Shown piece by piece: positions 14,716-44,037 of a DNA stretch of 55,714 nucleotides (its first letter is position 1; each line of letters opens with the position of its first letter). The notes beneath the pieces are model-generated. The model was not told where the DNA came from, did no database searches, and worked only from the letters and a program-made list of their open reading frames with translations. Location of the stretch: positions 1-55,714 of IMG/VR virus record IMGVR_UViG_3300006169_000022; one strand, 5' to 3'. The position numbers and the translations under genes were made by a program. Origin of the DNA: a virus.

Positions 14716-15012
14716 ATGATTGAAGGAATCCCCATCGTTGGCCTCACCGCACCTACGCTTCTCGGGATTGCCATTCTCATGATCTTGCTGGGTAAGTTGC
14801 ACACGAACCCGGCATATATGGAGAAGGCCCAGGAGGCCAAAGACTGGAAGGCCGCCTACGAGAAAGAAAGAGACGCTCGTGAGCTATCTGACCAACAGAC
14901 AGTCGAGCTTCTCGAAGTGTCAAAGACCAACCATTCCGTCACGGTTGCGATGTTTGAACTCATCCGCCGTGGACGGGAGCCGGGAGGCCCCGATGATCTT
15001 CCACCGGAGTAA
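14716..15012 (+). CDS. Membrane protein (one N-terminal TM), holin-region, 98 aa
   Basis: AAAGGAGG RBS. Hydrophobic IPIVGLTAPTLLGIAILMILLG segment, then a charged tail. Confidence 0.55.
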   Translation: MIEGIPIVGLTAPTLLGIAILMILLGKLHTNPAYMEKAQEAKDWKAAYEKERDARELSDQQTVELLEVSKTNHSVTVAMFELIRRGREPGGPDDLPPE

Positions 15013-15199
15013 GAAAGCTGACCCCGCAGCGAAGAGAGCGTTGGAGCAAGCGGACGAACATTTGAAGCAAGTACAGAGTAGGAGCGAGGAGGTACACCAC
15101 ATCGCTGAGGCTTCCAGGGAGTTTCGGCGTCGGAATCACTTCGCTGAGGATCTATATCCGATTCTGTACGGGCGCAAGCTACGAAAGGACACAAAGTGA
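14993..15199 (+). CDS. Small basic protein, 68 aa
   Basis: ATG 14993 lies 5 nt after GGGAGG. It fills the otherwise empty 184-nt gap, and its stop overlaps the next start (GTGATG). Confidence 0.45.
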   Translation: MIFHRSKKADPAAKRALEQADEHLKQVQSRSEEVHHIAEASREFRRRNHFAEDLYPILYGRKLRKDTK

Positions 15200-15561
15200 T
15201 GTCACTCGACGTCGAAGTTCTGGAGTTGTGGGTTCTCGGGTGCGTTGTTCTCGCATCGTTCTTCACAACGCTCTTCCCTGCTATGTACCTATTTTCTGCC
15301 TGGACCTCGACCCCTCTGGGTCGGATCCTCATGCTTCAGGGCATTGCCTTTGCTCTGGCAATCGACCTGACTCTGACGTTTGCGTTCTGGCGACCGGACA
15401 ACATCCACGTTGTTCTGTTCGTGAATGCATTCGTATTCACATTCATCGCCGCATCTACAGGCGCCCTGTGCGTCATGCTCTGGCGGGCTAACTATTCCAA
15501 GAAGGCCCGCCGAAAGTACAAGAACGGCGAGACCAACCAAGATGAGAAGGAGAAAGTGTGA
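15199..15561 (+). CDS. Four-TM membrane protein (holin-like), 120 aa
   Basis: ATG 15199 (or GTG 15196). Four hydrophobic segments and a Lys/Arg-rich C-terminus. Confidence 0.55.
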   Translation: MSLDVEVLELWVLGCVVLASFFTTLFPAMYLFSAWTSTPLGRILMLQGIAFALAIDLTLTFAFWRPDNIHVVLFVNAFVFTFIAASTGALCVMLWRANYSKKARRKYKNGETNQDEKEKV

Positions 15562-15980
15562 ACGACCAGGATTACACCCCCGAGAACCCGGGGGAACCCG
15601 AAGAGGGTAACGAGCCCGTCGTGGGTGACGCGCCTCCGAAGGCGCCGACTCTCTTCAGCAACCGGGCCTACGATCTGCTCAAGCAGCTCGTTCAGGTCGT
15701 GCTTCCGGGCGTGGGAGCTCTATATTTCACGCTCGCCAGCATCTGGGGTTTCCCCGCAGCCGAGCAGGTGGTCGGAACCATCGCGGCTGTCACGGTGTTC
15801 TTGGGTCTCCTGCTGGGACTCAGCACCAAGCAGTACAACAACAGCGACGCAGCGTTCGACGGTTCGGTCAACCTGGCACCGGACTACGAGAACGAAGTCA
15901 CCAACGTGGGCGTGTCCATCGCGCCGGCCGCGTTGGAGTCTGGTCAGAAGACGGTTCGGCTCCGCGTGCGTCATCAGTGA
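15558..15980 (+). CDS. Holin-like protein, Dp-1-family type, 140 aa, GTG start
   Basis: GTGA overlap. YDLLKQLVQVVLPGVGALYFTLASIWGFPAAEQVVGTIAAVTVFLGLLLGLS matches the Dp-1 holin signature as I remember it. Confidence 0.55.
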   Translation: MNDQDYTPENPGEPEEGNEPVVGDAPPKAPTLFSNRAYDLLKQLVQVVLPGVGALYFTLASIWGFPAAEQVVGTIAAVTVFLGLLLGLSTKQYNNSDAAFDGSVNLAPDYENEVTNVGVSIAPAALESGQKTVRLRVRHQ

Positions 15981-15995
15981 CGCATATTCGTAGAC

Positions 15996-16044
15996 TCGCG
16001 AGGCAAACACGCCTCATAGTGAGACCACTACGAAAGGAACCAGC
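15996..16044 (+). promoter_or_regulatory. Promoter/leader module, copy 0
   Basis: tcgcga-ggcaaacacgcctca-tagtgagaccactacgaaaggaaccagc-ATG; fixed 15-nt spacing between TCGCGA and TAGTGA. Confidence 0.6.
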
Positions 16045-16311
16045 ATGAAGAACTTCAACCAGGACGACCCAGACCTGACTGAGGCGATTGCCGATGCCTT
16101 TCGGAACTTGAAAGGCTTCGATGCTCATGACGAGGAGTACCAGAAGACGATCGAGCAGTTGACGGCTCTGCACGCAATGAAGAAGAAGCGTGTGGATCCG
16201 AATACTGCCCTGACCGTCGCTGGCAACCTCGCCATCGGCCTCGCTGTCGTCAAGTACGAAAGGACGGCAGTCGTCACATCAAAGGTTTGGTCCTTCCTCA
16301 CGAAGAAGTGA
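16045..16311 (+). CDS. Hypothetical protein with C-terminal TM-like segment, 88 aa
   Basis: Start follows module copy 0; followed by a strong terminator. Confidence 0.6.
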   Translation: MKNFNQDDPDLTEAIADAFRNLKGFDAHDEEYQKTIEQLTALHAMKKKRVDPNTALTVAGNLAIGLAVVKYERTAVVTSKVWSFLTKK

Positions 16312-16339
16312 ACCACCTGACCTGACACAGAACCTCGAG

Positions 16340-16381
16340 ATGAGAGGGCTTGTAGCTAACACCTACAGGCCCTCTCATTTT
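16340..16381 (+). terminator. Intrinsic terminator (GAGAGGGC-type)
   Basis: 16-bp stem atgagagggcttgtag / ctacaggccctctcat with a 7-nt loop, followed by TTT; near-duplicate at 19634. Confidence 0.75.
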
Positions 16382-16424
16382 CACTGCCCCCTCTAAATTT
16401 TCCAAAGTTAATACCATAAGTATG

Positions 16425-16476
16425 TCGCGAGGAATACATGGCCTTTAATGAGACCCCGACTATCAAGGAGAAACCC
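16425..16476 (+). promoter_or_regulatory. Promoter/leader module, copy 1
   Basis: tcgcga-ggaatacatggcctt-taatgagaccccgactatcaaggagaaaccc-ATG. Confidence 0.6.
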
Positions 16477-16707
16477 ATGAACATCAAGCGCGAGCTGATT
16501 GCCCTTGCCGTCCGAGTCCTCGCAGACAACACGAACCTTGTTCGCAAGCCCGAGCCCTTCGAAGAGCTTATCACCAACCTGTTTGGTGGAGAGACCTACG
16601 ACCAGCGCACGGCTCGCGTCATTGACGAAGAGTCCGCGAAGGCACTCGAGGCTGCCAAGCGCTTCAACACGAACCGGAAGTTCAAGAAGATCACCAAGAA
16701 CGTCTGA
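16477..16707 (+). CDS. Hypothetical protein, 76 aa
   Basis: ATG lies 6 nt after AAGGAG. The in-frame ATG 16438 used by the track lies inside the module and is not conserved among copies. Confidence 0.6.
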   Translation: MNIKRELIALAVRVLADNTNLVRKPEPFEELITNLFGGETYDQRTARVIDEESAKALEAAKRFNTNRKFKKITKNV

Positions 16708-16711
16708 TCCG

Positions 16712-16746
16712 AACCAAGAGCCCCTAACACGGGCTCACGGTTTTCG
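16712..16746 (+). terminator. Terminator hairpin (AACC..GAGCCC-loop-GGGCTC..GGTTTTCGCG family)
   Basis: gagccc/gggctc stem plus an outer aacc/ggtt pairing, then TTTT. Confidence 0.6.
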
Positions 16747-16792
16747 CGGGTGATACATGCCCCATAATGAGACCCCTACAAAAGGAGACATC
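16744..16792 (+). promoter_or_regulatory. Promoter/leader module, copy 2
   Basis: tcgcgg-gtgatacatgcccca-taatgagacccctacaaaaggagacatc-ATG. Confidence 0.6.
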
Positions 16793-17023
16793 ATGTTGAG
16801 AACTTCTACCTGGACCCGTTCAATCGGACGAGGAGACGTGCTTCACGCCGAAACCCTGATGCAGGACTTCGAAAAGGAAGAGACCCTGGCTCCCATCCCC
16901 GCAAGGGGACTGCAGCCGCCGTCGCTTCCCGAGAGGCCCTATATTCACGGAGCAAGCAAGAAGGCCGCCGACCTCCTCCGAGAGACCTGGAACCGGCAGA
17001 ACCCGCACAACCCGATGCCCTGA
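16793..17023 (+). CDS. Hypothetical protein, 76 aa
   Basis: ATG after AAAGGAG in module copy 2; terminator downstream. Confidence 0.6.
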   Translation: MLRTSTWTRSIGRGDVLHAETLMQDFEKEETLAPIPARGLQPPSLPERPYIHGASKKAADLLRETWNRQNPHNPMP

Positions 17024-17037
17024 GCACCAGTTTCAAG

Positions 17038-17067
17038 ACCAAGAGTCCTACACGGACTTTTGGTTTT
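17038..17067 (+). terminator. Terminator hairpin (same family)
   Basis: accaagagtcc-tacac-ggacttttggt (11-bp stem including one G-U pair), then TTT. Confidence 0.65.
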
Positions 17068-17115
17068 CGCGAAGAATACACGGCCTTTAATGAGACCCTA
17101 CGAAAGGAAACGCCC
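17067..17115 (+). promoter_or_regulatory. Promoter/leader module, copy 3
   Basis: tcgcga-agaatacacggcctt-taatgagaccctacgaaaggaaacgccc-ATG. Confidence 0.6.
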
Positions 17116-17340
17116 ATGTTCAAGAACCGTGAACTTCGCGTCCAGGTTGCCAAGACCGCACCTCAGGACTCCACCCAGCCCCAGCGCGACCGCACTGGCG
17201 AAATCCTACTGATCCACGCGATCGTCAAGGAAGACGTCAAGAAGCTCGCAATGATCGCTGGCGCTGGATACGCCATGAAGCGCGCCTTCGACCTCGGAAG
17301 CGAGATCGCTGTCATTGCCGCAAAGGCCAACATCAAGTAG
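17116..17340 (+). CDS. Hypothetical protein, 74 aa
   Basis: Start set by module copy 3; terminator downstream. Confidence 0.6.
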   Translation: MFKNRELRVQVAKTAPQDSTQPQRDRTGEILLIHAIVKEDVKKLAMIAGAGYAMKRAFDLGSEIAVIAAKANIK

Positions 17341-17346
17341 ATCCCA

Positions 17347-17386
17347 AACCAAGACCACGACTAATACTCGTGGTCACGGTTTTCGC
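17347..17386 (+). terminator. Terminator hairpin, 40-nt unit duplicated exactly at 17660-17699
   Basis: aaccaa-gaccacga-ctaatac-tcgtggtc-acggttttcgc; 8-bp perfect stem plus an outer aacc/ggtt pairing. Confidence 0.7.
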
Positions 17387-17438
17387 GAATGGAACATTCC
17401 TCCTAATGAGACCCCAATCCAACTACCAAGGAGCAGCA
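17383..17438 (+). promoter_or_regulatory. Promoter/leader module, copy 4
   Basis: tcgcga-atggaacattcctcc-taatgagaccccaatccaactaccaaggagcagca-ATG. Confidence 0.55.
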
Positions 17439-17654
17439 ATGTTCGTCATTACCCTCAGCAACATGTTTGCAACGACCACCGGCCTTGCTGGCCCCGCAAG
17501 CACATGGCTTAGGTGGGACACGCTCGAAGACGCCCGCAAGGCCGCCGTCGAGCTCAATGCCCACTATGGCCTACACGCGTATATCCACCCGGCCGATCGT
17601 ACAGACATCACTCTGGAGATGATCGACACCCATTCCTTCGGCTACGCCGATTGA
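17439..17654 (+). CDS. Hypothetical protein, 71 aa
   Basis: ATG lies 6 nt after AAGGAG of module copy 4. The upstream in-frame start in the track (17370) lies inside the terminator/module. Confidence 0.6.
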   Translation: MFVITLSNMFATTTGLAGPASTWLRWDTLEDARKAAVELNAHYGLHAYIHPADRTDITLEMIDTHSFGYAD

Positions 17655-17659
17655 CCCCC

Positions 17660-17699
17660 AACCAAGACCACGACTAATACTCGTGGTCACGGTTTTCGC
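17660..17699 (+). terminator. Terminator hairpin, exact copy of 17347-17386
   Basis: Identical 40-nt sequence. Confidence 0.7.
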
Positions 17700-17715
17700 T
17701 TTGTAAGGACGTGTC

Positions 17716-18027
17716 ATGGAACATCGCTTTCAGCACGCTTCAGCCACAGCACGCCTGGCCATATTCCCCGATGGCACGGCGCTTCTGTCCAGTCTTCGCT
17801 CACAGGCCCGCTGGAGAGGACACGCTAGCGGCCTGATGCGCGACATCACAAGCTACGCCGATGAGCATGGGCTCACCATATTTCTGACCGTGCAGGCGTA
17901 CGGTCACCCGACCAATGGGCTCAACAACCGTGAGCTCGAGAAGTTCTACGAGAGGTTCGGCTTCGTCAGGGACGCCCGATTCCCTAAGCCACCTTTCCGC
18001 ATGATCCGATATTTGAAGGAGGGGTAA
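17716..18027 (+). CDS. Minimal GNAT-type acetyltransferase domain protein (putative), 103 aa
   Basis: R-W-R-G-H-A-S (Q/RxxGxG/A acetyl-CoA loop) followed by ...LEKFYERFGF, the usual GNAT C-terminal motif. Confidence 0.5.
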   Translation: MEHRFQHASATARLAIFPDGTALLSSLRSQARWRGHASGLMRDITSYADEHGLTIFLTVQAYGHPTNGLNNRELEKFYERFGFVRDARFPKPPFRMIRYLKEG

Positions 18028-18239
18028 TGCCCGAAGTGAAGCACTACGTCGTCACTCAGACCCGGAAGGTTCGAGTCACGGCGAACAGCGCTGCCGACGC
18101 AGCAGAGATCGCCTCATCCGCCTTCGGCGGGAAGGACGGTGAGGGGTCTGTTGCCTACGGTCGTGGGCCTCACGGCATCTGGGGCAACACCACCGGCCGA
18201 ATCGAGGAGACTCGCCTGGAGGTCGACAGGGAGAAGTAG
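18027..18239 (+). CDS. Hypothetical protein, 70 aa
   Basis: GAAGGAGG RBS; TAATG stop-start overlap. Confidence 0.6.
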   Translation: MPEVKHYVVTQTRKVRVTANSAADAAEIASSAFGGKDGEGSVAYGRGPHGIWGNTTGRIEETRLEVDREK

Positions 18240-18240
18240 C

Positions 18241-18270
18241 TCGCAAGAAAAACATGCCCCCTAATGAGAG
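18241..18270 (+). promoter_or_regulatory. Promoter module, copy 5 (upstream half only; followed by a ~100-nt divergent leader)
   Basis: tcgcaa-gaaaaacatgccccc-taatgagag, then divergence; the same 15-nt spacing. Confidence 0.5.
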
Positions 18271-18367
18271 GAACGTCATCATCGACGATTGCTTCCCCCA
18301 CAATTGCGTGGGAGACGCATCCTCTCACTTTTATGCCCACCATCTATATTTCAGCAAGGAGAACATC

Positions 18368-18496
18368 ATGGTCAGGGCCATCGTCATCATCGCACTGTTC
18401 TTTCTCGCAGTGCACTGGCTTACCGGAGGCCAGCAAGAGATCATCGACCGGACGTACGACCCCAGCAAGAACCCAACAATGAGGAGTAATCCGTGA
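18368..18496 (+). CDS. Small membrane protein, 42 aa
   Basis: ATG lies 5 nt after AAGGAG; MVRAIVIIALFFLAVHWL TM segment. The longer track ORF starts at an ATG inside module copy 5. Confidence 0.5.
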   Translation: MVRAIVIIALFFLAVHWLTGGQQEIIDRTYDPSKNPTMRSNP

Positions 18497-19281
18497 AGAT
18501 TCCGCAGTTCGTGTACGTCGTCCGTAAGGTTGCGAACGACAACGCACCCGCGATTCTCACTGGTGTCGGTATCACCGGCACCGTGGCAACCGCATATCTG
18601 ACTGGCAAGGCCTCGTACCAGGCAGCCGGCATCATCCACGACGCCAAGGTCGAGCGTGTCGAAGGGACCATTCCGGTCCTGGTGCCGGTCGAGCTGACGA
18701 CGAAGGAGAAGGTCGAGCTGACCTGGAAGCTCTATATTCCCGCCGCTGGAGCAGGCGTTGGGACCATCGGAGCGATCTACTTCGCCAACCGGATCAGCTC
18801 GAAGAGGCTCGCCGCCATGGCCGCCGCCTACACCATCTCGGAGAAGGCATATTCCGAGTACAAGGACAAGGTCGTCGAGCTCATGGGCAAGGAGAAGGAG
18901 GAGAAGGTCCGTGCCTCCGTCCAGCAGGATCGAGTCAACCGTGACGCCGACAACGGCTTCATCGACGACAACCTGGAAGACGGGCTCGTGCGTTGTAAGG
19001 ACGCATGGTCCGGGCAGTACTTCCGTAGCACCATGGAGGACATCAAGACCGCCCAGAACGACCTGAACTACCAGATCCTGCACCACGGGTCTGCCTCACT
19101 GACCGACCTCTACTGCCAGCTCGGCATCGACAAGACGAAGGAGAGTGACGAGATCGGCTGGAACAGCGACAAGTTGCTCGAGATCGTGTTCGTGACGACC
19201 ATGGACAACAAGAAGCGGCCGGTGCTCGTGATGGATTTCGCAGTGGACCCCATTCGAAAGTACTGGAAAAGCAACGTCTGA
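18493..19281 (+). CDS. Membrane-anchored protein, paralog of 23013..23894, 262 aa, GTG start
   Basis: GTGA overlap; GAGGAG RBS. Two N-terminal hydrophobic segments and a shared L(T/N)(D/E)(L/V)Y.QLG...GW block. Confidence 0.6.
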   Translation: MKIPQFVYVVRKVANDNAPAILTGVGITGTVATAYLTGKASYQAAGIIHDAKVERVEGTIPVLVPVELTTKEKVELTWKLYIPAAGAGVGTIGAIYFANRISSKRLAAMAAAYTISEKAYSEYKDKVVELMGKEKEEKVRASVQQDRVNRDADNGFIDDNLEDGLVRCKDAWSGQYFRSTMEDIKTAQNDLNYQILHHGSASLTDLYCQLGIDKTKESDEIGWNSDKLLEIVFVTTMDNKKRPVLVMDFAVDPIRKYWKSNV

Positions 19282-19311
19282 ATGGGGTCTCCCATGTGAG
19301 ATCTCTACTTG

Positions 19312-19341
19312 AGGGGGATTGGCCTTACGGCTGATCCCCCT
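19312..19341 (+). terminator. Hairpin after 18493..19281
   Basis: agggggat / atccccct 8-bp stem with a 14-nt loop; no clear T-run. Confidence 0.4.
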
Positions 19342-19352
19342 TAGGTATTTCC

Positions 19353-19403
19353 TCGCGAGAAAAACATGTCTCTTAATGAGACCACTACCCGAAAGGAAAC
19401 CTC
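19353..19403 (+). promoter_or_regulatory. Promoter/leader module, copy 6
   Basis: tcgcga-gaaaaacatgtctct-taatgagaccactacccgaaaggaaacctc-ATG. Confidence 0.6.
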
Positions 19404-19610
19404 ATGAACAACGAGAACAACGAGACCCCGGAGACCCCCAACACCGCCGAGGCCACCGCCCGCAAGTTCTTCACCAAGAAGAACGTGATCCGCACCGCCG
19501 TTGCTGCCACCGCAGTGACCGCCGTCGTGGTGATCGTCGTCAAGACGAAGAACAGCGAGCTGGCCCAGGAGGCTGTCGAGGCCGCCGAGTCCGTCGCCAC
19601 CGCTGCCTGA
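19404..19610 (+). CDS. Small membrane protein, 68 aa
   Basis: Start set by module copy 6; TAVAATAVTAVVVIVV TM-like core; terminator downstream. Confidence 0.6.
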   Translation: MNNENNETPETPNTAEATARKFFTKKNVIRTAVAATAVTAVVVIVVKTKNSELAQEAVEAAESVATAA

Positions 19611-19633
19611 GACCCCATCAGGTCCCCCTCAAG

Positions 19634-19675
19634 ATGAGAGGGCTTGTAGCAATCGCTACAGGCCCTTTCATTTTC
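19634..19675 (+). terminator. Intrinsic terminator (GAGAGGGC-type), near-copy of 16340-16381
   Basis: atgagagggcttgtagc-aatc-gctacaggccctttcat followed by TTT. Confidence 0.75.
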
Positions 19676-19696
19676 TCTCAACAAGGAGACCCCTGC

Positions 19697-20074
19697 ATGA
19701 CTGAAGAACGAGATGGAAACCTCGGTGAGGTGATCGACCGTCGAGTACAGGTCTACGGTGACCCAACCGTGACATATCCTCGGATCGCACAGATCTGGTC
19801 CGGGGTGCTCGGCGTCGAGGTGTCAGCCACCGACGTCTGCCTCTGCATCATCGGGCTGAAGATGGTGCGCGCTCACGAGATGCCGGACTACTCCGACAAC
19901 TCGGATGATATCGAGGGCTACCTCGATATTTTCCGGACGCTCGTGGGCGATGACATGATCGCTGCTCGTACGGTCGCCGACTTCATCGCACAGAAGTGGC
20001 CGGCCGAGCCGGACCCACAGCAGATGTCGATATTCGACGACTTCGACCCGCACCACAACCGCGTCACCATCTGA
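19697..20074 (+). CDS. Hypothetical protein, 125 aa
   Basis: ATG lies 7 nt after AAGGAG. The 251-aa track ORF (19319) would run through the terminator, module copy 6 and another gene. Confidence 0.6.
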   Translation: MTEERDGNLGEVIDRRVQVYGDPTVTYPRIAQIWSGVLGVEVSATDVCLCIIGLKMVRAHEMPDYSDNSDDIEGYLDIFRTLVGDDMIAARTVADFIAQKWPAEPDPQQMSIFDDFDPHHNRVTI

Positions 20075-20084
20075 AAGGAACCAC

Positions 20085-20744
20085 ATGCTCAAGAAGACCA
20101 TCACCTTCGAGGATTACTCGGAGCCGCCTCGGGAGATCAGCCGCGACTTCTACTTCAACTTCACCAAGCTGGAGGTGATCGAGATGCTCGAGGTCGAGGA
20201 CCTCGAGGGAACGCTCAAGACCCTGCAGGAGACGCAGGACGGCCCCAAGGCCTACGAGATGTTCAAGAAGCTGATCCTCCGTGCCTACGGTGAGAAGACC
20301 CCCGAGGGCGGTTTCACCAAGGAAGACGAGAACGGACGCCCGCTCTCCAAGAAGTTCGAGACCCTGCCGGCCTGCTCGGAGCTCATCATCGAGTTCCTGC
20401 AGAACCCCCTGCTCGGTGCCGACTTCATCGAGAAGTGCCTCCCGGCCAAGATGGTCGCCGAGGCCAAGGAGGCCCAGAAGAACAACCCCAGCAAGGCCGA
20501 GCTCGAGAAGATGGTCGCCGAGGCCGCCGAGCGTCAGGAGAACCCTGAGACCCGCATCGAGCCTGGCACCCCGCCGGCAGAGCTGCGCGTCGTCGAGGAG
20601 GACACCAAGACGTTCGACGACTTCTCCAAGGAGGAGCTGCTCGAGATGTCGCAGGAGCAGTTCCAGAGCCTCGTGCCGAGGGACCCGAAGTCGATGACCC
20701 AGGCCCAGCTCCTGGTCGCCTTCGAGCGCAAGAACAAGCAGTAA
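20085..20744 (+). CDS. Hypothetical acidic protein, 219 aa
   Basis: GAAAGGAA RBS; good coding look. Confidence 0.6.
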   Translation: MLKKTITFEDYSEPPREISRDFYFNFTKLEVIEMLEVEDLEGTLKTLQETQDGPKAYEMFKKLILRAYGEKTPEGGFTKEDENGRPLSKKFETLPACSELIIEFLQNPLLGADFIEKCLPAKMVAEAKEAQKNNPSKAELEKMVAEAAERQENPETRIEPGTPPAELRVVEEDTKTFDDFSKEELLEMSQEQFQSLVPRDPKSMTQAQLLVAFERKNKQ

Positions 20745-20749
20745 CCCAT

Positions 20750-20876
20750 ATTCGTGAGAAAGGGCGGCAGGCGAGGGCCCTCCGGGGAAGGTAGGGGTCT
20801 CACCCTATTCCGGACGCCTGCAGACGAAACGACCGCCGACAGACAGGGACTGAAAAAGGTGCCCCGGCTCACGAAT
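20750..20876 (+). other. Structured intergenic element (~127 nt, multi-stem)
   Basis: Closed by a perfect 9-bp pairing attcgtgag (20750-58) / ctcacgaat (20868-76). Inner pairings gcaggcg/cgcctgc and tccgg/ccgga, plus a GGTAGGG...CCCTA hairpin. Confidence 0.35.
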
Positions 20877-20915
20877 GCAGTACACCATATTTGAGAACAA
20901 CAACCAAGGAGGTTC

Positions 20916-21329
20916 ATGCAGATGAACATCGACAAGATTGCCAAGAAGGACGCGTTCAACTGGGCTCGCGCAGAGATGTTCTTCGGTACCGGAGCAGGTA
21001 CCCGAAGGAAGCTGCTCGAGGCTGAGATCGCACACAAGGTGGAGACCATCTCCGGCTACCACGAGTCGTTCAACAAGTGGTACTCGAAGCAGAACTTCGC
21101 CGACCACGCCATCGCTGCCGCCAAGGAGCGGAAGCACATCGACCGCGTGAGCATGCTCAAGCGGAACGGCAGGGGTCTGCTGACGGGGAACCGCCGGCAG
21201 CTCACAGGCACGGTCCTCACGGGTGTTCTCGTGTGGGGTGTCCTGGTCGAGACGGGCTACGACAAGCCGATCAAGGCCGAGGTCAAGAAGCGCTACGAGC
21301 AGGTCAAGGCGAAGGTCAAGGAGCTCTGA
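20916..21329 (+). CDS. Hypothetical protein with C-terminal TM-like segment, 137 aa (start 20916 or 20922)
   Basis: AGGAGG at 20907-12; two in-frame ATGs 3 and 9 nt downstream. Confidence 0.55.
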   Translation: MQMNIDKIAKKDAFNWARAEMFFGTGAGTRRKLLEAEIAHKVETISGYHESFNKWYSKQNFADHAIAAAKERKHIDRVSMLKRNGRGLLTGNRRQLTGTVLTGVLVWGVLVETGYDKPIKAEVKKRYEQVKAKVKEL

Positions 21330-21523
21330 TGGCCAGGACCCACGTTCCTCCGGCTCGGCCGATCGACCCGCAGTTCACCCCAGAGCAGATCCTCGAGCAG
21401 GTACACAACCTGCTCGTTCGGGTCAACGGAGACAGCGACAAGTCAACGGACGAAGAGAGCGTGACCTACTACCAGGGTGCGATCGATATCCTGGAGGAAC
21501 TGGAGGCCGTTCTCACCGTGTAA
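21329..21523 (+). CDS. Hypothetical protein, 64 aa
   Basis: TGATG stop-start overlap. Confidence 0.5.
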   Translation: MARTHVPPARPIDPQFTPEQILEQVHNLLVRVNGDSDKSTDEESVTYYQGAIDILEELEAVLTV

Positions 21524-21524
21524 C

Positions 21525-21579
21525 TCGCAAGATTTACACGCCTCATAATGAGACCCCAACTACGAAAAGGAACACAATC
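21525..21579 (+). promoter_or_regulatory. Promoter/leader module, copy 7
   Basis: tcgcaa-gatttacacgcctca-taatgagaccccaactacgaaaaggaacacaatc-ATG. Confidence 0.6.
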
Positions 21580-21819
21580 ATGTCCAAGCTGACCACCGCC
21601 AAGATTGTCGTCCGCACCGTCGTCGGTATGAGCACCAGCTTCACCGTCGCCAACGCACTCCGCAACAACGTCCCCACCGAGACCAAGTCCCAGAAGACCC
21701 AGGTCGCGATCGGGAGCGTTGCTGTGGGCGCCATGGCTTCGGAGGCTGCTGGGCAGTACACCGACCGGCTGTTCGACGACATCGCCGCTGCGTTCAACTC
21801 CGGCAAGAAGACCGCCTGA
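21580..21819 (+). CDS. Small membrane protein, 79 aa
   Basis: Start set by module copy 7; two hydrophobic stretches; strong terminator downstream. Confidence 0.6.
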   Translation: MSKLTTAKIVVRTVVGMSTSFTVANALRNNVPTETKSQKTQVAIGSVAVGAMASEAAGQYTDRLFDDIAAAFNSGKKTA

Positions 21820-21836
21820 CCCGTACTACCACCTCG

Positions 21837-21874
21837 AAAGGGAGGGCGCCTAATACGCGCCCTTTCCTTTTTTT
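21837..21874 (+). terminator. Intrinsic terminator
   Basis: aaagggagggcgc-ctaatac-gcgccctttccttt hairpin followed by a T7 run (21868-74). Confidence 0.75.
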
Positions 21875-21897
21875 CTCTACTACCCAAAGGATGAATT

Positions 21898-22566
21898 ATG
21901 GAGAACCAGTTCCCCGGCAACAGCCACCAGGACAAGGAGAAGCCCACCGCGAAGAAGGCTGCGCCGGAGAAGAAGGTCGAGAAGATCGTCACCGGCGAAG
22001 TCGTCCAGCGGAAGAAGCCTCTCGGCAAGAAGTTCAAGGAGTTCATCGTTGGCGATGACTCCAAGAGCGTGATTCACTGGATCTGGGGCGATGTGCTCGT
22101 TCCAGGTGCGAAGGACGTCGTCTACGACGCTCTCACCGGAGGGCTCGAGAAGAGGATGTTCGGCGAGGCTCGTGGCCGTCGTCGTGGCGGCATCGCGAAC
22201 AGCGCCGTTCAGCAGATCTTCGGTAACGCGGCCTACAACCCGTACAACCGATATTCTGCGAGCAGCACCTCGCTGAGGCAGGACAACCGAGGCGGTCTTC
22301 CCAACCGCCGTGGTCGCGCTCAGATGCGTGACCTGGGTGAGATCCTGTTCACCACTCGCGCCGAGGCCACAGAGGTTCTCGACGCCATGATCGCCATCAT
22401 CGCGCAGTATCAGTCGGTCACCGTGGCCGATTTCTGGGAGCTCCTTGGCAAGACTGGAGAGCCCACGGACGAGAACTTCGGATGGACCGAGCTGCTCGGT
22501 GCCGACGTGATCTCCACCGGAGGTGTCTACCTCCTGGAACTGCCCAACCCGCACAAGCTCGACTGA
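21898..22566 (+). CDS. Hypothetical protein, 222 aa (Lys-rich N-terminus)
   Basis: AAAGGA RBS; ORF in track. Confidence 0.6.
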   Translation: MENQFPGNSHQDKEKPTAKKAAPEKKVEKIVTGEVVQRKKPLGKKFKEFIVGDDSKSVIHWIWGDVLVPGAKDVVYDALTGGLEKRMFGEARGRRRGGIANSAVQQIFGNAAYNPYNRYSASSTSLRQDNRGGLPNRRGRAQMRDLGEILFTTRAEATEVLDAMIAIIAQYQSVTVADFWELLGKTGEPTDENFGWTELLGADVISTGGVYLLELPNPHKLD

Positions 22567-22603
22567 CCCCCAACAACAGCTCTACCAAACAGGAGATATT
22601 TCG

Positions 22604-22846
22604 ATGCAGAACCGCACCACCACTCCCGAAAAGCCCACCACCGAGCTGTTCATGGATGCAGTCATGAGGCGGAAGCCGTGCAAGAGGCACCAGGCCGGCC
22701 TCGATTTCCCCTGCTGGGAGATCATCCCGATCGAGGGGCTGCCCAAGAAGGGCGTCTGCAACCGCCGTGCGAGGAACGCCGGGTTCAACCACCCGATCGA
22801 CCCGCGCTCGCTCCGTCTCCACCGGAACAAGACCGACAAGAAGTAG
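22604..22846 (+). CDS. Hypothetical basic protein, 80 aa
   Basis: ATG lies 8 nt after AGGAG (22591-95). Confidence 0.5.
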   Translation: MQNRTTTPEKPTTELFMDAVMRRKPCKRHQAGLDFPCWEIIPIEGLPKKGVCNRRARNAGFNHPIDPRSLRLHRNKTDKK

Positions 22847-22852
22847 GGAGTC

Positions 22853-23002
22853 ATGGCCACCAACAAGGAACGCGAGCTGCTCAAGTCCGCCTACAAGGTT
22901 GGCGGCAAACCCTCCCCAAAGTGGGCCGCGAAGGTCGACAGAATGTCGGACTCGCAAGTCATCGCCGTCCTTCGACGGCTCCAGTCGCAGAACAAGATCT
23001 GA
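22853..23002 (+). CDS. Small conserved-looking phage protein, 49 aa
   Basis: Not in the track (<60 aa). GGGAG RBS. MATNKERELLKSAYKVGGKPSPKWAAKVDRMSDSQVIAVLRRL resembles a common small phage protein (KV.KMSD.QV.A.Y.RL). Confidence 0.45.
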   Translation: MATNKERELLKSAYKVGGKPSPKWAAKVDRMSDSQVIAVLRRLQSQNKI

Positions 23003-23012
23003 AGGAGAAGCA

Positions 23013-23894
23013 ATGAAGTTCAACCTGCCCAGTGCAGTCACGACTCGGCTCGGAGTAGCCTCGGTCAAGCTGCAGCAAAACTCCCCGCATATCCTCTTCG
23101 GTGCCGGCATCGTTCTGATGGGCGCCACCGTTGTCACGGCGTGCCGGGCAACGCTGAAGGTGGAGACGACGCTCGACGCCCACAAGCAGCACATCGAGTG
23201 GACGAACGAGCACGTTGCGCCTGAGGGTCAGGCCAAGGAGAAGGCCATCGCCTACGCGGTGACCGCCCGCAAGCTCACCCGTCTGTACGGCCCGTCGGTC
23301 GTGCTGGGTGTCGGCTCGGTCGCCTGCCTCACGCAGTCGCACCGCATCATGACGCAGCGGAACGTGGCTCTGACCGCGTCGTACGCTGCTCTGGACAAGG
23401 CCTTCAAGCAGTACCGTGGCCGCGTCGTCAACGAGCTCGGCGAGGACCGCGAGCGCGAGATCTTCCGTGCCGTCGAGACCGAGAAGGTCAAGGGCGAGGA
23501 CGGGAAGAAGGTCGAGGTCAAGAAGAGCAATGGTGGTGGCTCCGGCTACGCCCGGCTCTTCGACGAGCACAACATCAACTGGGACACGAACCCGGACTAT
23601 CGGGTCGGGTTCCTGCGTCTCTCGCAGAACCAGCTCAACGATCAGCTCAACGCCAAGGGCGTGCTGTTCCTGAACGAGGTCTACGACCAGCTGGGGCTGG
23701 AGCGGACCGAGGCCGGGCAGCATGTCGGCTGGGTCTCCTCGAAGTTCTCGGAGTCGAAGGACGGCTTCGTGGACTTCGGCGTCTTCACCGACCGCACCGC
23801 GGACGAGTACTACAACTTCGCGGTTCACGGTGAGGGCATCTGGCTCGACTTCAACGTCGACGGCATCGTCGCCGACCTCTTGAAGAAGATCTGA
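23013..23894 (+). CDS. Membrane-anchored protein, paralog of 18493..19281, 293 aa
   Basis: ATG lies 5 nt after GAAGGAG. The track ORF start (22767) is far upstream, overlapping two genes. Confidence 0.6.
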   Translation: MKFNLPSAVTTRLGVASVKLQQNSPHILFGAGIVLMGATVVTACRATLKVETTLDAHKQHIEWTNEHVAPEGQAKEKAIAYAVTARKLTRLYGPSVVLGVGSVACLTQSHRIMTQRNVALTASYAALDKAFKQYRGRVVNELGEDREREIFRAVETEKVKGEDGKKVEVKKSNGGGSGYARLFDEHNINWDTNPDYRVGFLRLSQNQLNDQLNAKGVLFLNEVYDQLGLERTEAGQHVGWVSSKFSESKDGFVDFGVFTDRTADEYYNFAVHGEGIWLDFNVDGIVADLLKKI

Positions 23895-23905
23895 GGCGGT
23901 GACAC

Positions 23906-24769: not shown

Positions 24770-25299
24770 TGAGCGCCCTACTTGACGAGGAGTATCTGAT
24801 TTGGCTGTATAGCCAGATCGGAGCCGTCAAGCTCAGGAATCGCTCAAAGTCGCACTGGTCCCTGGCCAGGCAGCTCTTCAAGACAGAGTTCGTCTGGTTC
24901 ATCCCGAATGACGACAACAGAGTCGAGGACGGAAGGGACCTGCGGTTTGAGTTCCTCGACGCTAGCGGGCTCGACGCAACCGAGGAGTGGCTCGCAATGG
25001 GCTGCTCCATGCTTGAGCTCTTGATCGGACTGGCGCGGCGGCTCTCCTTCGAAACTGAGGGGGAGCCCCGCGTCTGGTTCTGGCACATGATCGAGATGCT
25101 CGACCTACGACAGTACAACGACCGGGTGTATGACGCCCAGGCCGAAGAGAAGATCGAAGAGGCTCTAAACCGTGTCATATTTCGGACCTACGCACCGAAT
25201 GGGCAAGGAGGACTCTTCCCCCTCCGGCACCCAAGGACAGATCAAAGAGAGGTGGAACTCTGGTATCAGCTTAGTGCATATCTGCTGGAACTCGTGTAG
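24769..25299 (+). CDS. Hypothetical protein, 176 aa
   Basis: TGATG overlap; ORF in track. Confidence 0.6.
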   Translation: MSALLDEEYLIWLYSQIGAVKLRNRSKSHWSLARQLFKTEFVWFIPNDDNRVEDGRDLRFEFLDASGLDATEEWLAMGCSMLELLIGLARRLSFETEGEPRVWFWHMIEMLDLRQYNDRVYDAQAEEKIEEALNRVIFRTYAPNGQGGLFPLRHPRTDQREVELWYQLSAYLLELV

Positions 25300-25315
25300 C
25301 CCGAGAGGAGGGTAG

Positions 25316-29101: not shown

Positions 29102-29107
29102 CCCACT

Positions 29108-29139: not shown

Positions 29140-29151
29140 CTAGGAGTCATC

Positions 29152-33481: not shown

Positions 33482-33535
33482 TCGCAAGTTGTACATGCCC
33501 TTTAATGAGACCCCAACTACGAAAAGGAAACCACC
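33482..33535 (+). promoter_or_regulatory. Promoter/leader module, copy 8
   Basis: tcgcaa-gttgtacatgccctt-taatgagaccccaactacgaaaaggaaaccacc-ATG. Shares 27 identical nt from TAATGA onward with copy 7. Confidence 0.6.
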
Positions 33536-33924: not shown

Positions 33925-33976
33925 TCGCAAGTCATACATGGCCTTTAGTGAGACCCCATCTATGAAAGGAACCACA
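33925..33976 (+). promoter_or_regulatory. Promoter/leader module, copy 9
   Basis: tcgcaa-gtcatacatggcctt-tagtgagaccccatctatgaaaggaaccaca-ATG. Confidence 0.6.
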
Positions 33977-40344: not shown

Positions 40345-40387
40345 TGTGGTATTATCACGCGTCATATTCGCGCCTTATAATAGAAGG

Positions 40388-41287: not shown

Positions 41288-44037
41288 GTCCTATTCTCAA
41301 CGAAGACGACTACCTGGCACACTACGGCGTCCTCCGTCGTTCTGGACGGTTCCCGTGGGGGTCAGGCGGAAAGTGGGGTAGCGCCGGCACTGTCGACGCT
41401 GCTCAGCGAAGCAAGTCCTTCATGGACCAGGTGGCTCTGCTCCGGCAGGAGGGTATGTCTGATCCCGATATCGCTCGGGGTTTCGGGATGACTACCAAGG
41501 AGCTTCGAGAGACCAACACCATCGCAGTCAACGCCAAGCGTGCGGCTGACGTTGGTCAAGCAGTCAAGCTGAAAGAGAAGGGATATTCCAACGTCGCCAT
41601 CGGCGAGCGGATGGGTATCAACGAGTCCTCTGTGAGGTCTCTTCTCAATCGGCATCTGCAGGACAAGCAGGACATTCTGACCGAGACCGCCAACATCCTT
41701 CGGGATCAGGTGGATACCGGATCCTTCATCGACATCGGAAAGGGTGTCGCTACCACGCGCGGAATCTCGAACGAGAAGCTCAACTCTGCCGTGGCGCTGC
41801 TCAAGGATGAGGGATATTCAGTCCAGAAGGTCCAGGTGCAGCAGCAGGGCACCTCAGCGGGGAACAAGACCACGATCAAGGTCCTCTGTCCTCCTGGTAC
41901 GACCTACCGTGATGTCAAGATGAACATGGACAACATTCGCCAGATCGAACAGAAGACGAATGATGGAGGTCGGACTTTCTTCGGCATCCTACCGCCCAAG
42001 TCCATTGATGGCTCGCGCATTCAGGTCCGCTACGTCGAAGACGGCGGTGCGGAAGCGGATGGTGTCATGTACATCCGTCCTGGAGTCGAGGATCTCTCTT
42101 TGGGAGGCTCTCGATACGCGCAGGTCCGAATCATGGTGTCGGATTCGCACTACGCCAAAGGCATGGCTGTCTACCGGGATGATCTTCCGGATGGCGTGGA
42201 CATGGTTGTCAACAGCAACAAGAAGCGCGGCACTCCGATGCTTGGAGACAAGGACAACTCTGTCCTGAAGCCGTTGCAGACCGATGCAGATGGAAACATC
42301 GACAAGGACAACCCCTTCGGAGCCCAGATTGCCAGTCAGATCGGCAAGACGGATGCAACCGGTCGTGTGGTGGAGCTCACCTCCGCTGTAAATATCCTGA
42401 ACAAGGAAGGCGACTGGGAAGGCTGGAAGAAGAGCATTGCCTCACAGGTTCTGTCAAAGCAGAGCCCCAAGCTTGCTGAAGCTCAACTGAAGCAGGCCTA
42501 TGACAGGAAGCGTGAAGAGCTGGATGAGATCCTCGCTCTGAACAATCCTGCTGTGAAGGCGAAGCTGCTGGCCTCGTACTCTGAGGGTGCGGATTCTGCT
42601 GCGGTTCACCTCAAGGCTGCGGCCCTGCCAAGGCAGGCGTCACATGCCATCCTTCCGGTCAAGTCTCTGAAGGATACGGAAGTCTACGCCCCCAACTACA
42701 ACGACGGGGAACGTGTGGCTCTCATCCGCTATCCACATGGCGGAACCTTCGAGATCCCGGAACTCACGGTCAACAACCGTAACCGTGAGGCAACGGCCAT
42801 GATTGGCAAGCAGGCAAGGGACGCAATCGGCATCAACCACAAGGTCGCTGAGCGGCTGTCTGGTGCTGACTTCGATGGGGACTCTGTTCTCGTCATCCCG
42901 AACAATCGGGGCGCGCTCAAGTCCACGCCTGCACTGGAGGGTCTGAAAACGTTCGATGCTAAGGCTGAGTACCCGGCGTATGAGGGCATGCCCCGTATGA
43001 CGCCTCGTGCAAAGCAGCAGCAGATGGGGTTGGTCTCTAACCTCATTACGGACATGACCATTCAGAAGGCCAGCACTGATGAGCTGGCCCGTGCTGTTCG
43101 CCATTCGATGGTGGTCATCGATGCAGAGAAGCACAACCTGGATTACCGTCGTTCCGCTAGGGACAATGGGATCCTGGCTCTGCAGAAGAAGTACCAGCCT
43201 CGAGATGATGGCCGTGCTGGTGGTGCTGCGACCCTGATCTCTAGGGCTACGTCACGCACAGAAGTCCGGGCTAGGAAGCCTAGGTCCATGGCTAAGGGTG
43301 GTCCTATTGACCCTGCCACAGGAAGGCGAGTCTACGAGAAGACTGGAGAGTCTTGGGTAGACCCCAACACAGGTAAGACTGTCTACAAGACCCAGCGTTC
43401 TGTGAAGCTTCGGGAGACCGATGATGCACACACTCTGGTGTCTAAGGATGGTGGCACTCTGATTGAAAGGGTCTATGCCGATCATTCGAACAGGATGAAG
43501 GCTCTGGCTAACGAGGCACGTAAGGCCTATGTCGCACAGCCTTCGGTTCAGAGGTCACCCTCTGCAGCCAAGGCATACGAGGCACAGGTCAAGTCACTTG
43601 ATGCAAAGCTTAGCAATGCATTGAGGAACAGTCCTCGTGAACGTCAGGCCCAGGTCTTTGCCGATACTGTGGTGTCAGCCAAGAGGGATGCCAATCCCAA
43701 CATGGACAACACTCAGATCAAGAGAGCACAAGCACAAGCATTGGCTGAAGCACGTGCTCGCTTTGGTGCAAAGAAGGAACTGGTGGACATCACACCAGAT
43801 GAGTGGAATGCAATCCAGGGTGGAGCTATCAGTAACCACAAGCTCAAGCAGATCCTGGACAACACCGACATCGACAAGGTGAAGGCGTTGGCTACACCAC
43901 GTACACCAAGGCTCATGAGTGGTGGCAACCTGGCACGGGCCAAGCAGATGCAGGCACAGGGCAAGACACAGGCAGAGATCGCTGCTGCCCTTGGCATCAG
44001 TGTTACTACAGTGAAGGAGGGGTTGAACAGTGGATGA
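41284..44037 (+). CDS. Single-subunit two-barrel RNA polymerase candidate (YonO/QDE-1-like) with HTH segments, 917 aa, TTG start
   Basis: Beta-like SHYAKGMAVYRDDLPDGVDMVVNSN (aa 288-). Beta-prime-like RYPHGG (aa 482-) ... INHKVAERLSGADFDGDSVLVIP (ADFDGD at nt 42865-82). HTH-like GYSNVAIGERMGINESSVRSLLNR and GKTQAEIAAALGISVTTVKEGL. GGGAGG lies 10 nt before the TTG. Confidence 0.65.
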   Translation: MSPILNEDDYLAHYGVLRRSGRFPWGSGGKWGSAGTVDAAQRSKSFMDQVALLRQEGMSDPDIARGFGMTTKELRETNTIAVNAKRAADVGQAVKLKEKGYSNVAIGERMGINESSVRSLLNRHLQDKQDILTETANILRDQVDTGSFIDIGKGVATTRGISNEKLNSAVALLKDEGYSVQKVQVQQQGTSAGNKTTIKVLCPPGTTYRDVKMNMDNIRQIEQKTNDGGRTFFGILPPKSIDGSRIQVRYVEDGGAEADGVMYIRPGVEDLSLGGSRYAQVRIMVSDSHYAKGMAVYRDDLPDGVDMVVNSNKKRGTPMLGDKDNSVLKPLQTDADGNIDKDNPFGAQIASQIGKTDATGRVVELTSAVNILNKEGDWEGWKKSIASQVLSKQSPKLAEAQLKQAYDRKREELDEILALNNPAVKAKLLASYSEGADSAAVHLKAAALPRQASHAILPVKSLKDTEVYAPNYNDGERVALIRYPHGGTFEIPELTVNNRNREATAMIGKQARDAIGINHKVAERLSGADFDGDSVLVIPNNRGALKSTPALEGLKTFDAKAEYPAYEGMPRMTPRAKQQQMGLVSNLITDMTIQKASTDELARAVRHSMVVIDAEKHNLDYRRSARDNGILALQKKYQPRDDGRAGGAATLISRATSRTEVRARKPRSMAKGGPIDPATGRRVYEKTGESWVDPNTGKTVYKTQRSVKLRETDDAHTLVSKDGGTLIERVYADHSNRMKALANEARKAYVAQPSVQRSPSAAKAYEAQVKSLDAKLSNALRNSPRERQAQVFADTVVSAKRDANPNMDNTQIKRAQAQALAEARARFGAKKELVDITPDEWNAIQGGAISNHKLKQILDNTDIDKVKALATPRTPRLMSGGNLARAKQMQAQGKTQAEIAAALGISVTTVKEGLNSG

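Follow-up and report, generated by a model that had tools for sequence, protein, structure and literature searches.

The phage genome and its repeated module

The DNA analysed here (the window) is the whole 55,714-nt stretch of IMG/VR virus record IMGVR_UViG_3300006169_000022, in which the plausible genes all lie on the plus strand and the G+C content is about 58%. The subject of this report is a conserved intergenic module of about 31 nt, ten copies of which stand in front of small genes, and its proposed relation to a 917-aa single-chain RNA polymerase (RNAP) encoded by the same phage (Table 1). A megablast search with positions 15000–22000 against our phage set (50,697 genomes) gave no match, that is, no close nucleotide relative, and relatives surfaced only through protein and sensitive nucleotide searches. 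The terminase–portal region is about 70–72% identical to that of Streptomyces cluster BI phages, for example TaidaOne, and the gene order is that of TaidaOne, circularly permuted: terminase, portal, capsid–protease, tail, holin, small-gene array, replication module (primase-helicase at 25316–29101 with DUF5906 and D5, single-stranded DNA-binding protein, helicase) and the 917-aa gene, the counterpart of which sits at the extreme right genome end in isolates. Sequence and synteny together mark the window as the genome, circularly permuted, of a relative of the Streptomyces cluster BI phages. Its ends (1–151 and 54324–55714) are consistent with a circularly permuted complete genome, as the window starts inside an open reading frame (ORF) and the capsid–protease region runs off; the physical ends of the isolates would fall just past the RNAP gene, which here corresponds to the 399-nt gap 44038–44436.

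The module was searched for as TCGCR-N6-ACAY-N6-TARTGAGA with up to three mismatches allowed, chance being estimated from dinucleotide-preserving shuffles (n = 100). The window gave ten matches, each with no mismatch, where 0.62 were expected and none of the 100 shuffles reached ten. The original prediction had described eight copies, between 15996 and 21525, as intergenic and on the coding strand; all eight were recovered together with two beyond that range (modules 9 and 10), and position and orientation hold for all ten. It had also proposed a weight matrix and scan, which gave 40–51 bits for the ten copies and 2.8 bits for the next-best site on either strand, so the window holds exactly ten. 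Module 8 is embedded in 41 consecutive columns that are identical in L118, the closest relative compared (73–83% identical overall), while its flanks have visibly diverged, and on this comparison the motif is under selection.

Table 1. Modules, genes, hairpins and RNAP features of the window
Feature	Coordinates	Strand	Details
Module 1	15996..16026	+	TCGCGAGGCAAACACGCCTCATAGTGAGACC; 43.9 bits; 15 nt after stop of 15558–15980; heads ORF 16045–16311 (88 aa, transmembrane (TM)-like)
Module 2	16425..16455	+	50.9 bits; heads ORF 16477–16707 (76 aa)
Module 3	16744..16774	+	47.3 bits; heads ORF 16793–17023 (76 aa); first T is last T of preceding terminator T-run
Module 4	17067..17097	+	45.6 bits; heads ORF 17116–17340 (74 aa)
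Module 5	17383..17413	+	43.2 bits; heads ORF 17439–17654 (71 aa)
Module 6, GAGAGG variant	18241..18271	+	40.3 bits; 1 nt after stop of 18027–18239; structured 100-nt leader
Module 6 genes	18368–18496, 18493–19281	+	Two-gene unit: 42 aa, TM; DUF6353
Leader hairpin after module 6	18262..18335	+	GAGAGGA pairs with UCCUCUC 55 nt downstream, then UUUU
Module 7	19353..19383	+	48.9 bits; heads ORF 19404–19610 (68 aa, TM); conserved in L118
Module 8	21525..21555	+	46.4 bits; 1 nt after upstream ORF stop; heads ORF 21580–21819 (79 aa)
Module 9	33482..33512	+	50.1 bits; heads ORF 33536–33805 (89 aa, TM)
Module 10	33925..33955	+	48.3 bits; heads ORF 33977–34159 (60 aa, two TM-like stretches)
Terminator-like hairpin, family 1	16714..16744	+	CCAAGA..stem-loop..CACGGTTTT; hairpin + T-run
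Family 1, further copies	~17039–17067, 17349–17383, 17662–17696, 33819–33848, 34170–34201	+	Hairpin + T-run
Terminator-like hairpin, family 2	16337..16382, 19632–19677 (copy 2)	+	GATGAGAGGGCTTGTAGC..CTACAGGCCCTYTCATTTTC; two sequences near-identical
Strong hairpin + T7 run	21840..21876	+	10 pairs, 7 G-C; tail CTTTTTTTCT; closes last cassette, before replication genes
Best sigma-70-like site in window	40352..40381	+	TTATCA-18-TATAAT; ~900 nt upstream of RNAP gene
Single-chain two-barrel RNAP, 917 aa	41284..44037	+	Proposed reader of modules
N-terminal helix-turn-helix, HTH_23	41551..41661	+	Residues 90–126; Pfam, 42.1 bits (cut-off 24.6); conserved across clades
Catalytic loop GADFDGD	42862..42882	+	Residues 527–533; invariant in 42 homologues and 6 phage clades
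C-terminal helix-turn-helix, Sigma70_r4_2	43954..44016	+	Residues 891–911; Pfam, 36.8 bits (cut-off 25.7)

Geometry of the module and its cassettes

Constant spacing is confined to TCGCR..GAGACC(CC), about 31–33 nt, and for this part the fixed geometry that had been predicted over some 50 bp stands. It does not extend to the block CTAY-GAAAGGA, which is in register with the ATG and not with the promoter block, the linker between the two being 0–9 nt. What had been called a standardised 5′ untranslated region accordingly divides into GAGACC(CC), which is part of the promoter block, and an ordinary ribosome-binding region behind a variable linker. CTAC was considered as a transcription start site and rejected, since its distance to the promoter block varies over 0–9 nt and that to the Shine–Dalgarno sequence is fixed. 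In nine copies a Shine–Dalgarno-like GAAAGGA or AAGGAG is followed by an ATG 22–29 nt past TARTGA; at module 6, already singled out as a variant with a leader of about 100 nt, GAGAGG replaces GAGACC and the leader measures 100 nt.

A hairpin precedes six or seven of the ten copies, and in three of these the T-run abuts the module (folding energies for 79-nt stretches upstream are −21 to −24 kcal/mol for the family 1 hairpins). Modules 1, 6 and 8 lie 1–15 nt past an upstream stop codon with no hairpin in front, so that the described hairpin-before-most-copies arrangement applies to the former group only. The occurrence of TTTTCGC after the module-less terminator 17662–17696 raised the idea that TCGC is a mere terminator tail; this was rejected, as modules 1, 6 and 8 have TCGCRA without a terminator and the block is kept in relatives and in Faecalibacterium phage FP_oengus (as ACGCGA). 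The downstream ORFs are of 42–89 aa, several with TM-like stretches that are visible in the translations, as had been noted, and their PHROG matches are to unknown-function families only. The picture of autonomous one-gene units does not hold for module 6, which heads two genes, or for the promoterless genes at 17716–18239 and 19697–21523; these, like the whole replication module after 21840–21876, lie downstream of terminators, which must therefore leak. The modules and leaders had no Rfam matches at gathering thresholds, and a tRNA scan of the window was empty.

The 917-residue RNAP

The GADFDGD loop of the 917-aa protein is the counterpart of the beta-prime catalytic loop, and its invariance holds down to 43% identity. 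A Pfam RdRP match is weak (16.7 bits, below cut-off); the terminal helix-turn-helix (HTH) matches recur in the five other clades compared, not every one above cut-off. Searches of PDB sequences, with the single sequence and with a profile, matched the C-terminal HTH only, and a comparison of folds was therefore needed. An AlphaFold2 model (mean predicted local distance difference test score 78.7, predicted TM-score 0.64) was matched by Foldseek to QDE-1 (E 3e-6), Thermus phage P74-26 gp62 (8f5m, E 3.7e-6, second-best) and plant RDR2, and more weakly to Rpb1 and bacterial beta-prime. The significant matches all belong to the two-barrel superfamily, with TM-scores that are low (0.26–0.38), as expected for multi-domain models, and in a viral structure library the model matches proteins named RNA-dependent RNA polymerase. 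By its catalytic motif and predicted fold, then, the 917-aa protein is a two-barrel RNAP. The family is large, with at least 8,000 homologues in metagenomes and members in about 250 sequenced isolates (one homologue, P0007, 87% identical to that of the window, is named after a Saprospiraceae metagenome-assembled genome (MAG)). Koert et al. (bioRxiv 10.1101/842583) had proposed, from HHpred and the DxDGD motif, that it belongs with the YonO/crAss-like RNAPs and has HTHs at both ends, and described it as a signature gene of a supercluster spanning phages of Actinobacteria and Firmicutes; no promoter was described.

Distribution of the module and the RNAP

The exact pattern occurs in at least 119 IMG/VR stretches, many with two to eight copies, among them the Gordonia phages Tanis (eight copies in 14.7 kb), Kenosha and Secretariat and Streptomyces phage DrGrey. 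Among the matches listed, none of the 52 multi-copy stretches has copies on both strands, and a start codon lies 19–31 nt (mode 22) past TARTGA in 190 of 226 copies. In the phage set, tblastn with the RNAP found 250 records and blastn with a 45-nt consensus of the module found 233 (1,265 places). The per-genus counts are equal for Arthrobacter (95), Gordonia (55), Streptomyces (54), Siphovirus (12), Rhodococcus (4) and Microbacterium (4), and differ for Curtobacterium (seven with the RNAP and four with the motif), Lactococcus (13 and four) and Faecalibacterium (two and none). The shortfall of the motif is confined to these most divergent clades, in which a 45-nt BLAST query loses sensitivity. 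The terminase–portal region, by comparison, matches 78 Mycobacterium and 90 Gordonia phages, of which the 78 and 35 extra Gordonia phages fall outside the RNAP and motif counts. On these searches the motif and the RNAP gene are co-distributed in phages of Actinobacteria and Firmicutes, and the motif, present ten times in the window, is present thousands of times across the supercluster.

In 185,579 bacterial and archaeal genomes the full motif was found in 14 stretches, 13 of them singletons, a number compatible with chance, for which about 35 matches were estimated (a 35-bit pattern over 2 × 596 Gb). The remaining stretch, a soil contig of 4.1 kb (L125, QHXL01000552.1), has five modules, is binned into an ‘Acidobacteria’ MAG and from its content is a mis-binned phage fragment; fragments of this phage lineage are thus binned into unrelated MAGs, and host assignments from such bins are unreliable. 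Since the motif is essentially absent from bacterial genomes, it is not a class of host promoter.

Clade-specific versions of the module

Each clade has its own version of the module. TaidaOne has about 14 copies of TCGCA(A/T)-N5-ACA(C/A)G-NCC-TATA(A/G)TGAGACC (TCGCAAGAATTACACGCCCTATAATGAGACC) before genes 31–45 and 51. The Arthrobacter phages Gordon and Dynamite share TCGCxxxAATTACA..TATAAT, the Gordon version being TCGCAAGAATTACAC-N3-TTATAATGA(C/G)A and that of Dynamite TCGCGTAAATTACA(A/C)GGG(C/G)TATAAT(G/A)(A/G)A. In Lactococcus phage P162 (33% G+C; its RNAP is 40% identical) about 12 copies read TTTTACAT(A)CCCTATAATGAAAGGATATAGGTA (TTTTACATACCCTATAATGAAAGG); they follow T-rich terminators and are without the CGCRA block. 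In FP_oengus, a temperate phage with an RNAP of 42% identity, about 12 copies read (G/A)ACGCGAAAAAT(A/T)CA-N6-C(T)TTATGGA (ACGCGAAAAATACAG..CCTTTATGGA). Diverged as they are, the P162 and FP_oengus modules precede small genes and have the same geometry. From these versions the common skeleton is CGCRA, about 5 nt, (T)ACA, about 6–7 nt, and T(A/T)(T/A)AT(G).

A logo built on 213 unique copies has T (187) and A (179) as the main bases at positions 19 and 20, which the search pattern leaves free, giving TATAAT. In a sub-lineage made up of the window and at least 11 metagenomic stretches these positions vary (TG, CA, TT, TC, AG) and TAATGAGACC is kept. Downstream of the AT-rich block there are two classes, GAGACC(CC) with short leaders and GAGA(A/G)G with long leaders, the latter found in module 6 of the window, in Gordon, in P162 and in several metagenomic stretches. 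The recognition helix of an N-terminal HTH of the RNAP reads (N/S)ESS(V/I)R in four of the five CGCRA-bearing clades and PESTFR in the fifth (TaidaOne); in P162, the clade without CGCRA, it reads SPGSVT. This single contrast hints that the N-terminal HTH reads CGCRA, and is a lead only.

TaidaOne also shows, over 26580–34253, two covarying subtypes of its module, TCGCAAGAATTACAC..TATAATGAGACC and TCGCATATTTTACA..TATAGTGAGACC, the second of which carries ATATT. Its TATAGTGAG variant has a 12-nt identity (CCCTATAGTGAG) to the reverse complement of the T7 promoter; as the strand is the wrong one and the enzymes are of unrelated families, the link was rejected as coincidence.

Comparison with host sigma-A promoters

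A sigma-A −10 element is TAnnnT, in which A−11 and T−7 are essential, and sigma region 4 reads −35 elements. The modules resemble sigma-70/sigma-A promoters, including those of the extracytoplasmic function (ECF) type, in being bipartite with an AT-rich downstream block (TATAAT in most relatives), and the RNAP has a sigma region 4 homologue. They differ in their 13–15 nt spacing, in having no TAnnnT in the window and in the invariant bases past the hexamer. No TAnnnT was found at any of the ten modules when searched for within 40 nt: TAATGA ends in A, and if the hexamer is read instead as NNTAAT, an A stands at the ‘−11’ place in only three of ten. Between TCGCRA and TAATGA there are 15 nt (13 nt if counted to NNTAAT), where sigma-A spacing is 16–19 nt, and the positions at −35 distance carry at most about 0.1 bit of information. 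A scan of 15000–34900 with the sigma-70 consensus returned one site, at no module (3.9 expected). GAGACC, downstream of the would-be hexamer, is invariant in the clade of the window. The prediction that the motif is not a sigma-A promoter is supported by the lack of TAnnnT in the window copies, the lack of a −35 element at the modules and the absence of the motif from host genomes.

The alternative in which these promoters are nevertheless used by the host RNAP supposes that sigma-A uses the TATAAT-like block without a −35 element, that the TCGCRA, ACAYG and GAGACC flanks bind a phage regulator or tune strength, and that the phage RNAP serves other genes, for example a late operon. YonO sets a precedent, as it reads one late operon from a single start and not many early cassettes (PMC5467207). 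The cassettes resemble early genes for host takeover, a class that the host RNAP transcribes in most phages, and the family consensus, in Lactococcus phages as in the majority of actinophage clades, is exactly TATAAT or TATAGT. Many actinobacterial promoters are without a −35 element, whereas firmicute sigma-A normally needs either this or a TG extension. The Lactococcus version (P162) has neither; the FP_oengus copies have no TAnnnT and read TTTATGGA; and in several lineages the T−12/A−11 bases vary while the bases past the hexamer stay invariant. In addition temperate FP_oengus would be expected to express some 12 cassettes constitutively in lysogens if the host RNAP were enough by itself. 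Together with the absence of the full motif from host genomes and of TAnnnT from the window copies, these observations make host promoters an unlikely explanation.

A model for transcription from the modules

The explanation that fits best, and which we consider probable, is that each of the ten modules is a promoter dedicated to the 917-aa two-barrel RNAP that the phage encodes. Both parts of this had been put forward in the original prediction: that of a phage-specific promoter gains support from the distribution, from the geometry kept between clades, from the absence of the motif from hosts and from the lack of TAnnnT, and that of the 917-aa protein as candidate reader from its identification as a two-barrel RNAP by motif and predicted fold and from its having the same distribution as the motif. 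We infer from these data that initiation takes place at the motif, and equally the identity of the reading enzyme, its contacts with the individual blocks and the start site.

In this model the RNAP would dispense with a host sigma factor, DNA binding being supplied by HTH domains within the protein itself, one or two N-terminal and one, sigma-70 region-4-like, C-terminal. TCGCRA and (T)ACAYG, upstream, would be bound by these HTH domains; melting would occur at the AT-rich TAAT(G) block, and the RNA would begin within GAGACC or directly behind it. The transcripts would have leaders of about 20–30 nt with a strong GAAAGGA ribosome-binding site and would encode small, often membrane-targeted proteins, most units being closed by a leaky hairpin and T-run. 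The RNAP gene itself would probably be expressed first by the host RNAP, for which the sigma-70-like site at 40352 may be regarded, from its sequence, as a candidate promoter. In linear relatives the RNAP gene, at the right end, would enter first as in lambda-like packaging (in lambda the right end is the first to enter), which would fit early expression by the host enzyme. The 40352 site is directly followed by a 9-bp hairpin and a T-rich run (to 40410), and a second site, TTGCCA-17-TACTTT, was seen by eye in the 146-nt AT-rich gap 39683–39828.

A tentative extension, possible rather than probable, is that the 917-aa enzyme is self-sufficient, with a two-barrel core and sigma-like HTHs in one chain reading a bipartite promoter (TCGCRA/ACAYG by the HTHs and TAAT-GAGACC by the core) without any host factor, and that enzyme and promoter have been kept as a pair through the history of the supercluster. 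In a bolder variant, by analogy with P23-45, the crAss-like phages and N4, the enzyme may be packaged and injected in the virion, in which case the membrane-protein cassettes would be immediate-early genes.

Several points weigh against a promoter read by the phage RNAP. Co-distribution is confounded with descent: the motif-bearing phages are one supercluster sharing many genes, so that any other lineage-specific protein could read the motif. Ten promoters serve about 80 genes and none stands before the structural genes, which calls for extensive read-through or another promoter class. The family consensus is a perfect TATAAT, TA being present at both critical positions in 246 of 316 copies, and with this element perfect in most isolates the host RNAP might also fire there; as actinobacterial sigma-A often needs the −10 element only, host initiation could occur in many relatives. 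Several homologues are annotated ‘RNA-dependent RNA polymerase’ in RefSeq, and DNA-dependent activity is a prediction. Finally, no published work was found in which transcripts of the window phage or its relatives had been mapped, binding measured or transcription reproduced in vitro.

If the modules are not read by the phage RNAP itself, they might be read by host core RNAP re-targeted by a phage sigma-like protein or activator, either through the HTHs of the 917-aa protein or through a small HTH protein such as that encoded at 37284–37652. The 917-aa protein does have HTHs of the Sigma70_r4_2 type and HTH_23 type, a small ORF with a weak HTH_23 match exists, and the layout of upstream block, 15 nt and AT-rich block recalls ECF-type promoters. 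However, none of the 30 ORFs scanned has a sigma region 2 domain, the part that opens the −10 element and binds core, and none is a separate sigma-like protein, the sole sigma-domain match lying inside the RNAP; moreover a complete catalytic two-barrel core would be superfluous in a mere specificity factor. We regard re-targeting as decidedly unlikely. That the modules are not promoters at all, and are either operators like the cluster A stoperators or RNA-level elements (processing site, translation enhancer or start-associated sequence), is very improbable: their single orientation and intergenic position would suit stoperators too, and the fixed start-codon distance and adjoining strong Shine–Dalgarno sequence would suit a translational element, but the conserved block reaches to about −50 and ends 22–29 nt before the ATG with only CTAY-GAAAGGA in ATG register, module 6 keeps its upstream block despite a 100-nt leader, several copies begin at a terminator T-run so that little upstream transcription would be there to carry them as RNA, inspection revealed no consistent RNA pairing within the module, and there was no repressor or integrase among about 30 ORFs in a scan that was not exhaustive, the closest isolates also being without such annotation.

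Known systems and significance

The closest functional analogue of the proposed system is Thermus phage P23-45, which has two two-barrel RNAPs, gp96 (in the virion, with an AT-rich motif) and gp64 (non-virion, with a GC-rich motif), the motifs having been assigned by start-site mapping, chromatin immunoprecipitation sequencing (ChIP-seq) and presence or absence in relatives (PMC10770324). Like the window phage it is a siphovirus with a single-chain two-barrel RNAP and a conserved, non-host-like motif before many small pre-early or early genes, present in relatives with the enzyme and absent in those without; P74-26 gp62, the second-best structural match noted above, is the homologue of its gp64. 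The motif sequences are unrelated, however, the P23-45 enzymes are without terminal HTH or sigma-4-like domains, and its starts and occupancy have been measured (ONT-cappable-seq, ChIP-seq), whereas the modules of the window are known from sequence alone. The closest named enzyme type is YonO of the Bacillus prophage SPbeta, a sigma-independent enzyme distantly related to the multisubunit RNAPs and, by description, like the window RNAP a single chain of about 100 kDa with a DxDGD loop. YonO serves just one late operon, from a single start site, and its promoter sequence and factor requirement are undefined (PMC5467207); the window, in contrast, has ten reiterated candidate promoters, which head small genes outside the structural set.

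Class II and III promoters of T7, T3 and SP6 resemble the modules in being long and near-invariant (about 20–30 bp), with an AT-rich melting block and a conserved initially transcribed sequence, and in being reiterated along a one-direction genome with terminator read-through, clade-specific and co-evolving with the polymerase; the promoters of T7, T3 and SP6 differ by clade-specific sequence. Their enzymes, however, are of the Pol-A-like single-subunit family, and the modules add TCGCRA at a −35-like distance. No T7-type RNAP was seen among the large ORFs (not every ORF was scanned): the polymerase-like ones are the primase-helicase and the two-barrel enzyme, and the others of more than 800 aa lie in the tail region and are syntenic with TaidaOne tail genes. 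Repeats before many early or small actinophage genes are familiar from the reiterated early promoters of Streptomyces phage phiC31, which is not known to have a two-barrel RNAP gene, and from the start-associated sequences of cluster K mycobacteriophages. The latter sit at the ribosome-binding site, unlike the module, which ends 22–29 nt (100 nt in one copy) before the ATG; the stoperators of cluster A mycobacteriophages are 13–14-bp asymmetric sites inside transcription units and go with a cognate repressor and a temperate lifestyle, and the module is 31 nt long and bound in position to the starts of genes.

No publication describing the motif was found in a search that included the strings TAATGAGACC and TATAATGAGA, and outside which lay the papers on phage 1706 and on Rhodococcus phage Pepy6/Poco6 (Summer 2011). 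An Arthrobacter phage paper describes small membrane-protein gene arrays in clusters AM and AU and in Pepy6/Poco6, and never uses the word ‘promoter’. The sequence comparisons support the module as a new candidate promoter, for a two-barrel RNAP lineage with fused HTHs, of a known kind, the phage-RNAP-specific promoter. How single-chain two-barrel RNAPs recognise promoters is an open question, and this large family offers a sharply defined candidate. If correct, it would be the first defined promoter for the YonO-like lineage, would explain how the arrays of small membrane-protein genes are expressed and would give high-GC Gram-positive hosts an orthogonal system as compact as one protein plus a 31-bp promoter, with possible use for expression in Streptomyces, Gordonia, Arthrobacter and Lactococcus. 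Many of the isolates are culturable SEA-PHAGES phages, and the question could be tested with one purified protein and 31 bp of DNA.

Other features of the window

The leader hairpin after module 6 has a minimum free energy of −30.6 kcal/mol (z −3.3, one of 200 shuffles being as stable) and includes a terminator-like site at 18308–18328; it is a candidate attenuator or, alternatively, a candidate small RNA about 65 nt long. The terminator-like hairpins of the window form two repeated families, and TaidaOne has a family of its own (CCCCGCAAGGGGTTTGGGTTT). DUF6353 proteins are encoded by two paralogues, 18493–19281 in the cassette array (Pfam E 1e-76) and 23013–23894 in the replication module (3.5e-71). 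The ORF-poor stretches 32551–32803 (about 250 nt) and 33086–33481 (about 400 nt) precede module 9 and gave no Rfam or tRNA matches; at the end of the second is a strong G+C-rich hairpin that no T-run follows (−39.4 kcal/mol for a 79-nt stretch). A non-coding gap at 20745–20915 (171 nt) has an inverted repeat (CATATTCGTGAG...CTCACGAATG) at its edges and folds no better than shuffles (z −1.1).

The most asymmetric 5-mer in the window is ATATT, which occurs 88 times on the plus strand against once for its complement AATAT (about 23 each expected); examples are at 782, 15984, 17761, 29134 and 40364, and there is none between 41814 and 48010. Its context is S-(not A)-ATATT-Y, and it falls in all codon phases (21/29/22), including rare codons such as ATA. 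The asymmetry is shared by TaidaOne (106:2), Tanis (47:0) and L118 (23:0), and was not seen in Gordon, Dynamite or P162; among the IMG/VR matches listed (n = 119) it is strong in 39 and not in 18. Over a block of 83% identity eight of 13/15 ATATT sites are common, and because the lost sites have replacements close by (10 nt away in one example), the comparison suggests selection for site density on one strand. The pentamer might mark where primase starts or where a strand is nicked, or act as a polar signal that opposes antisense transcription. TCTACA (31:0) and CTACA (93:8) are also unequal between the strands, which may be codon-related (e.g. TTC-TAC-AAG); CTAC is part of the pre-Shine–Dalgarno block.

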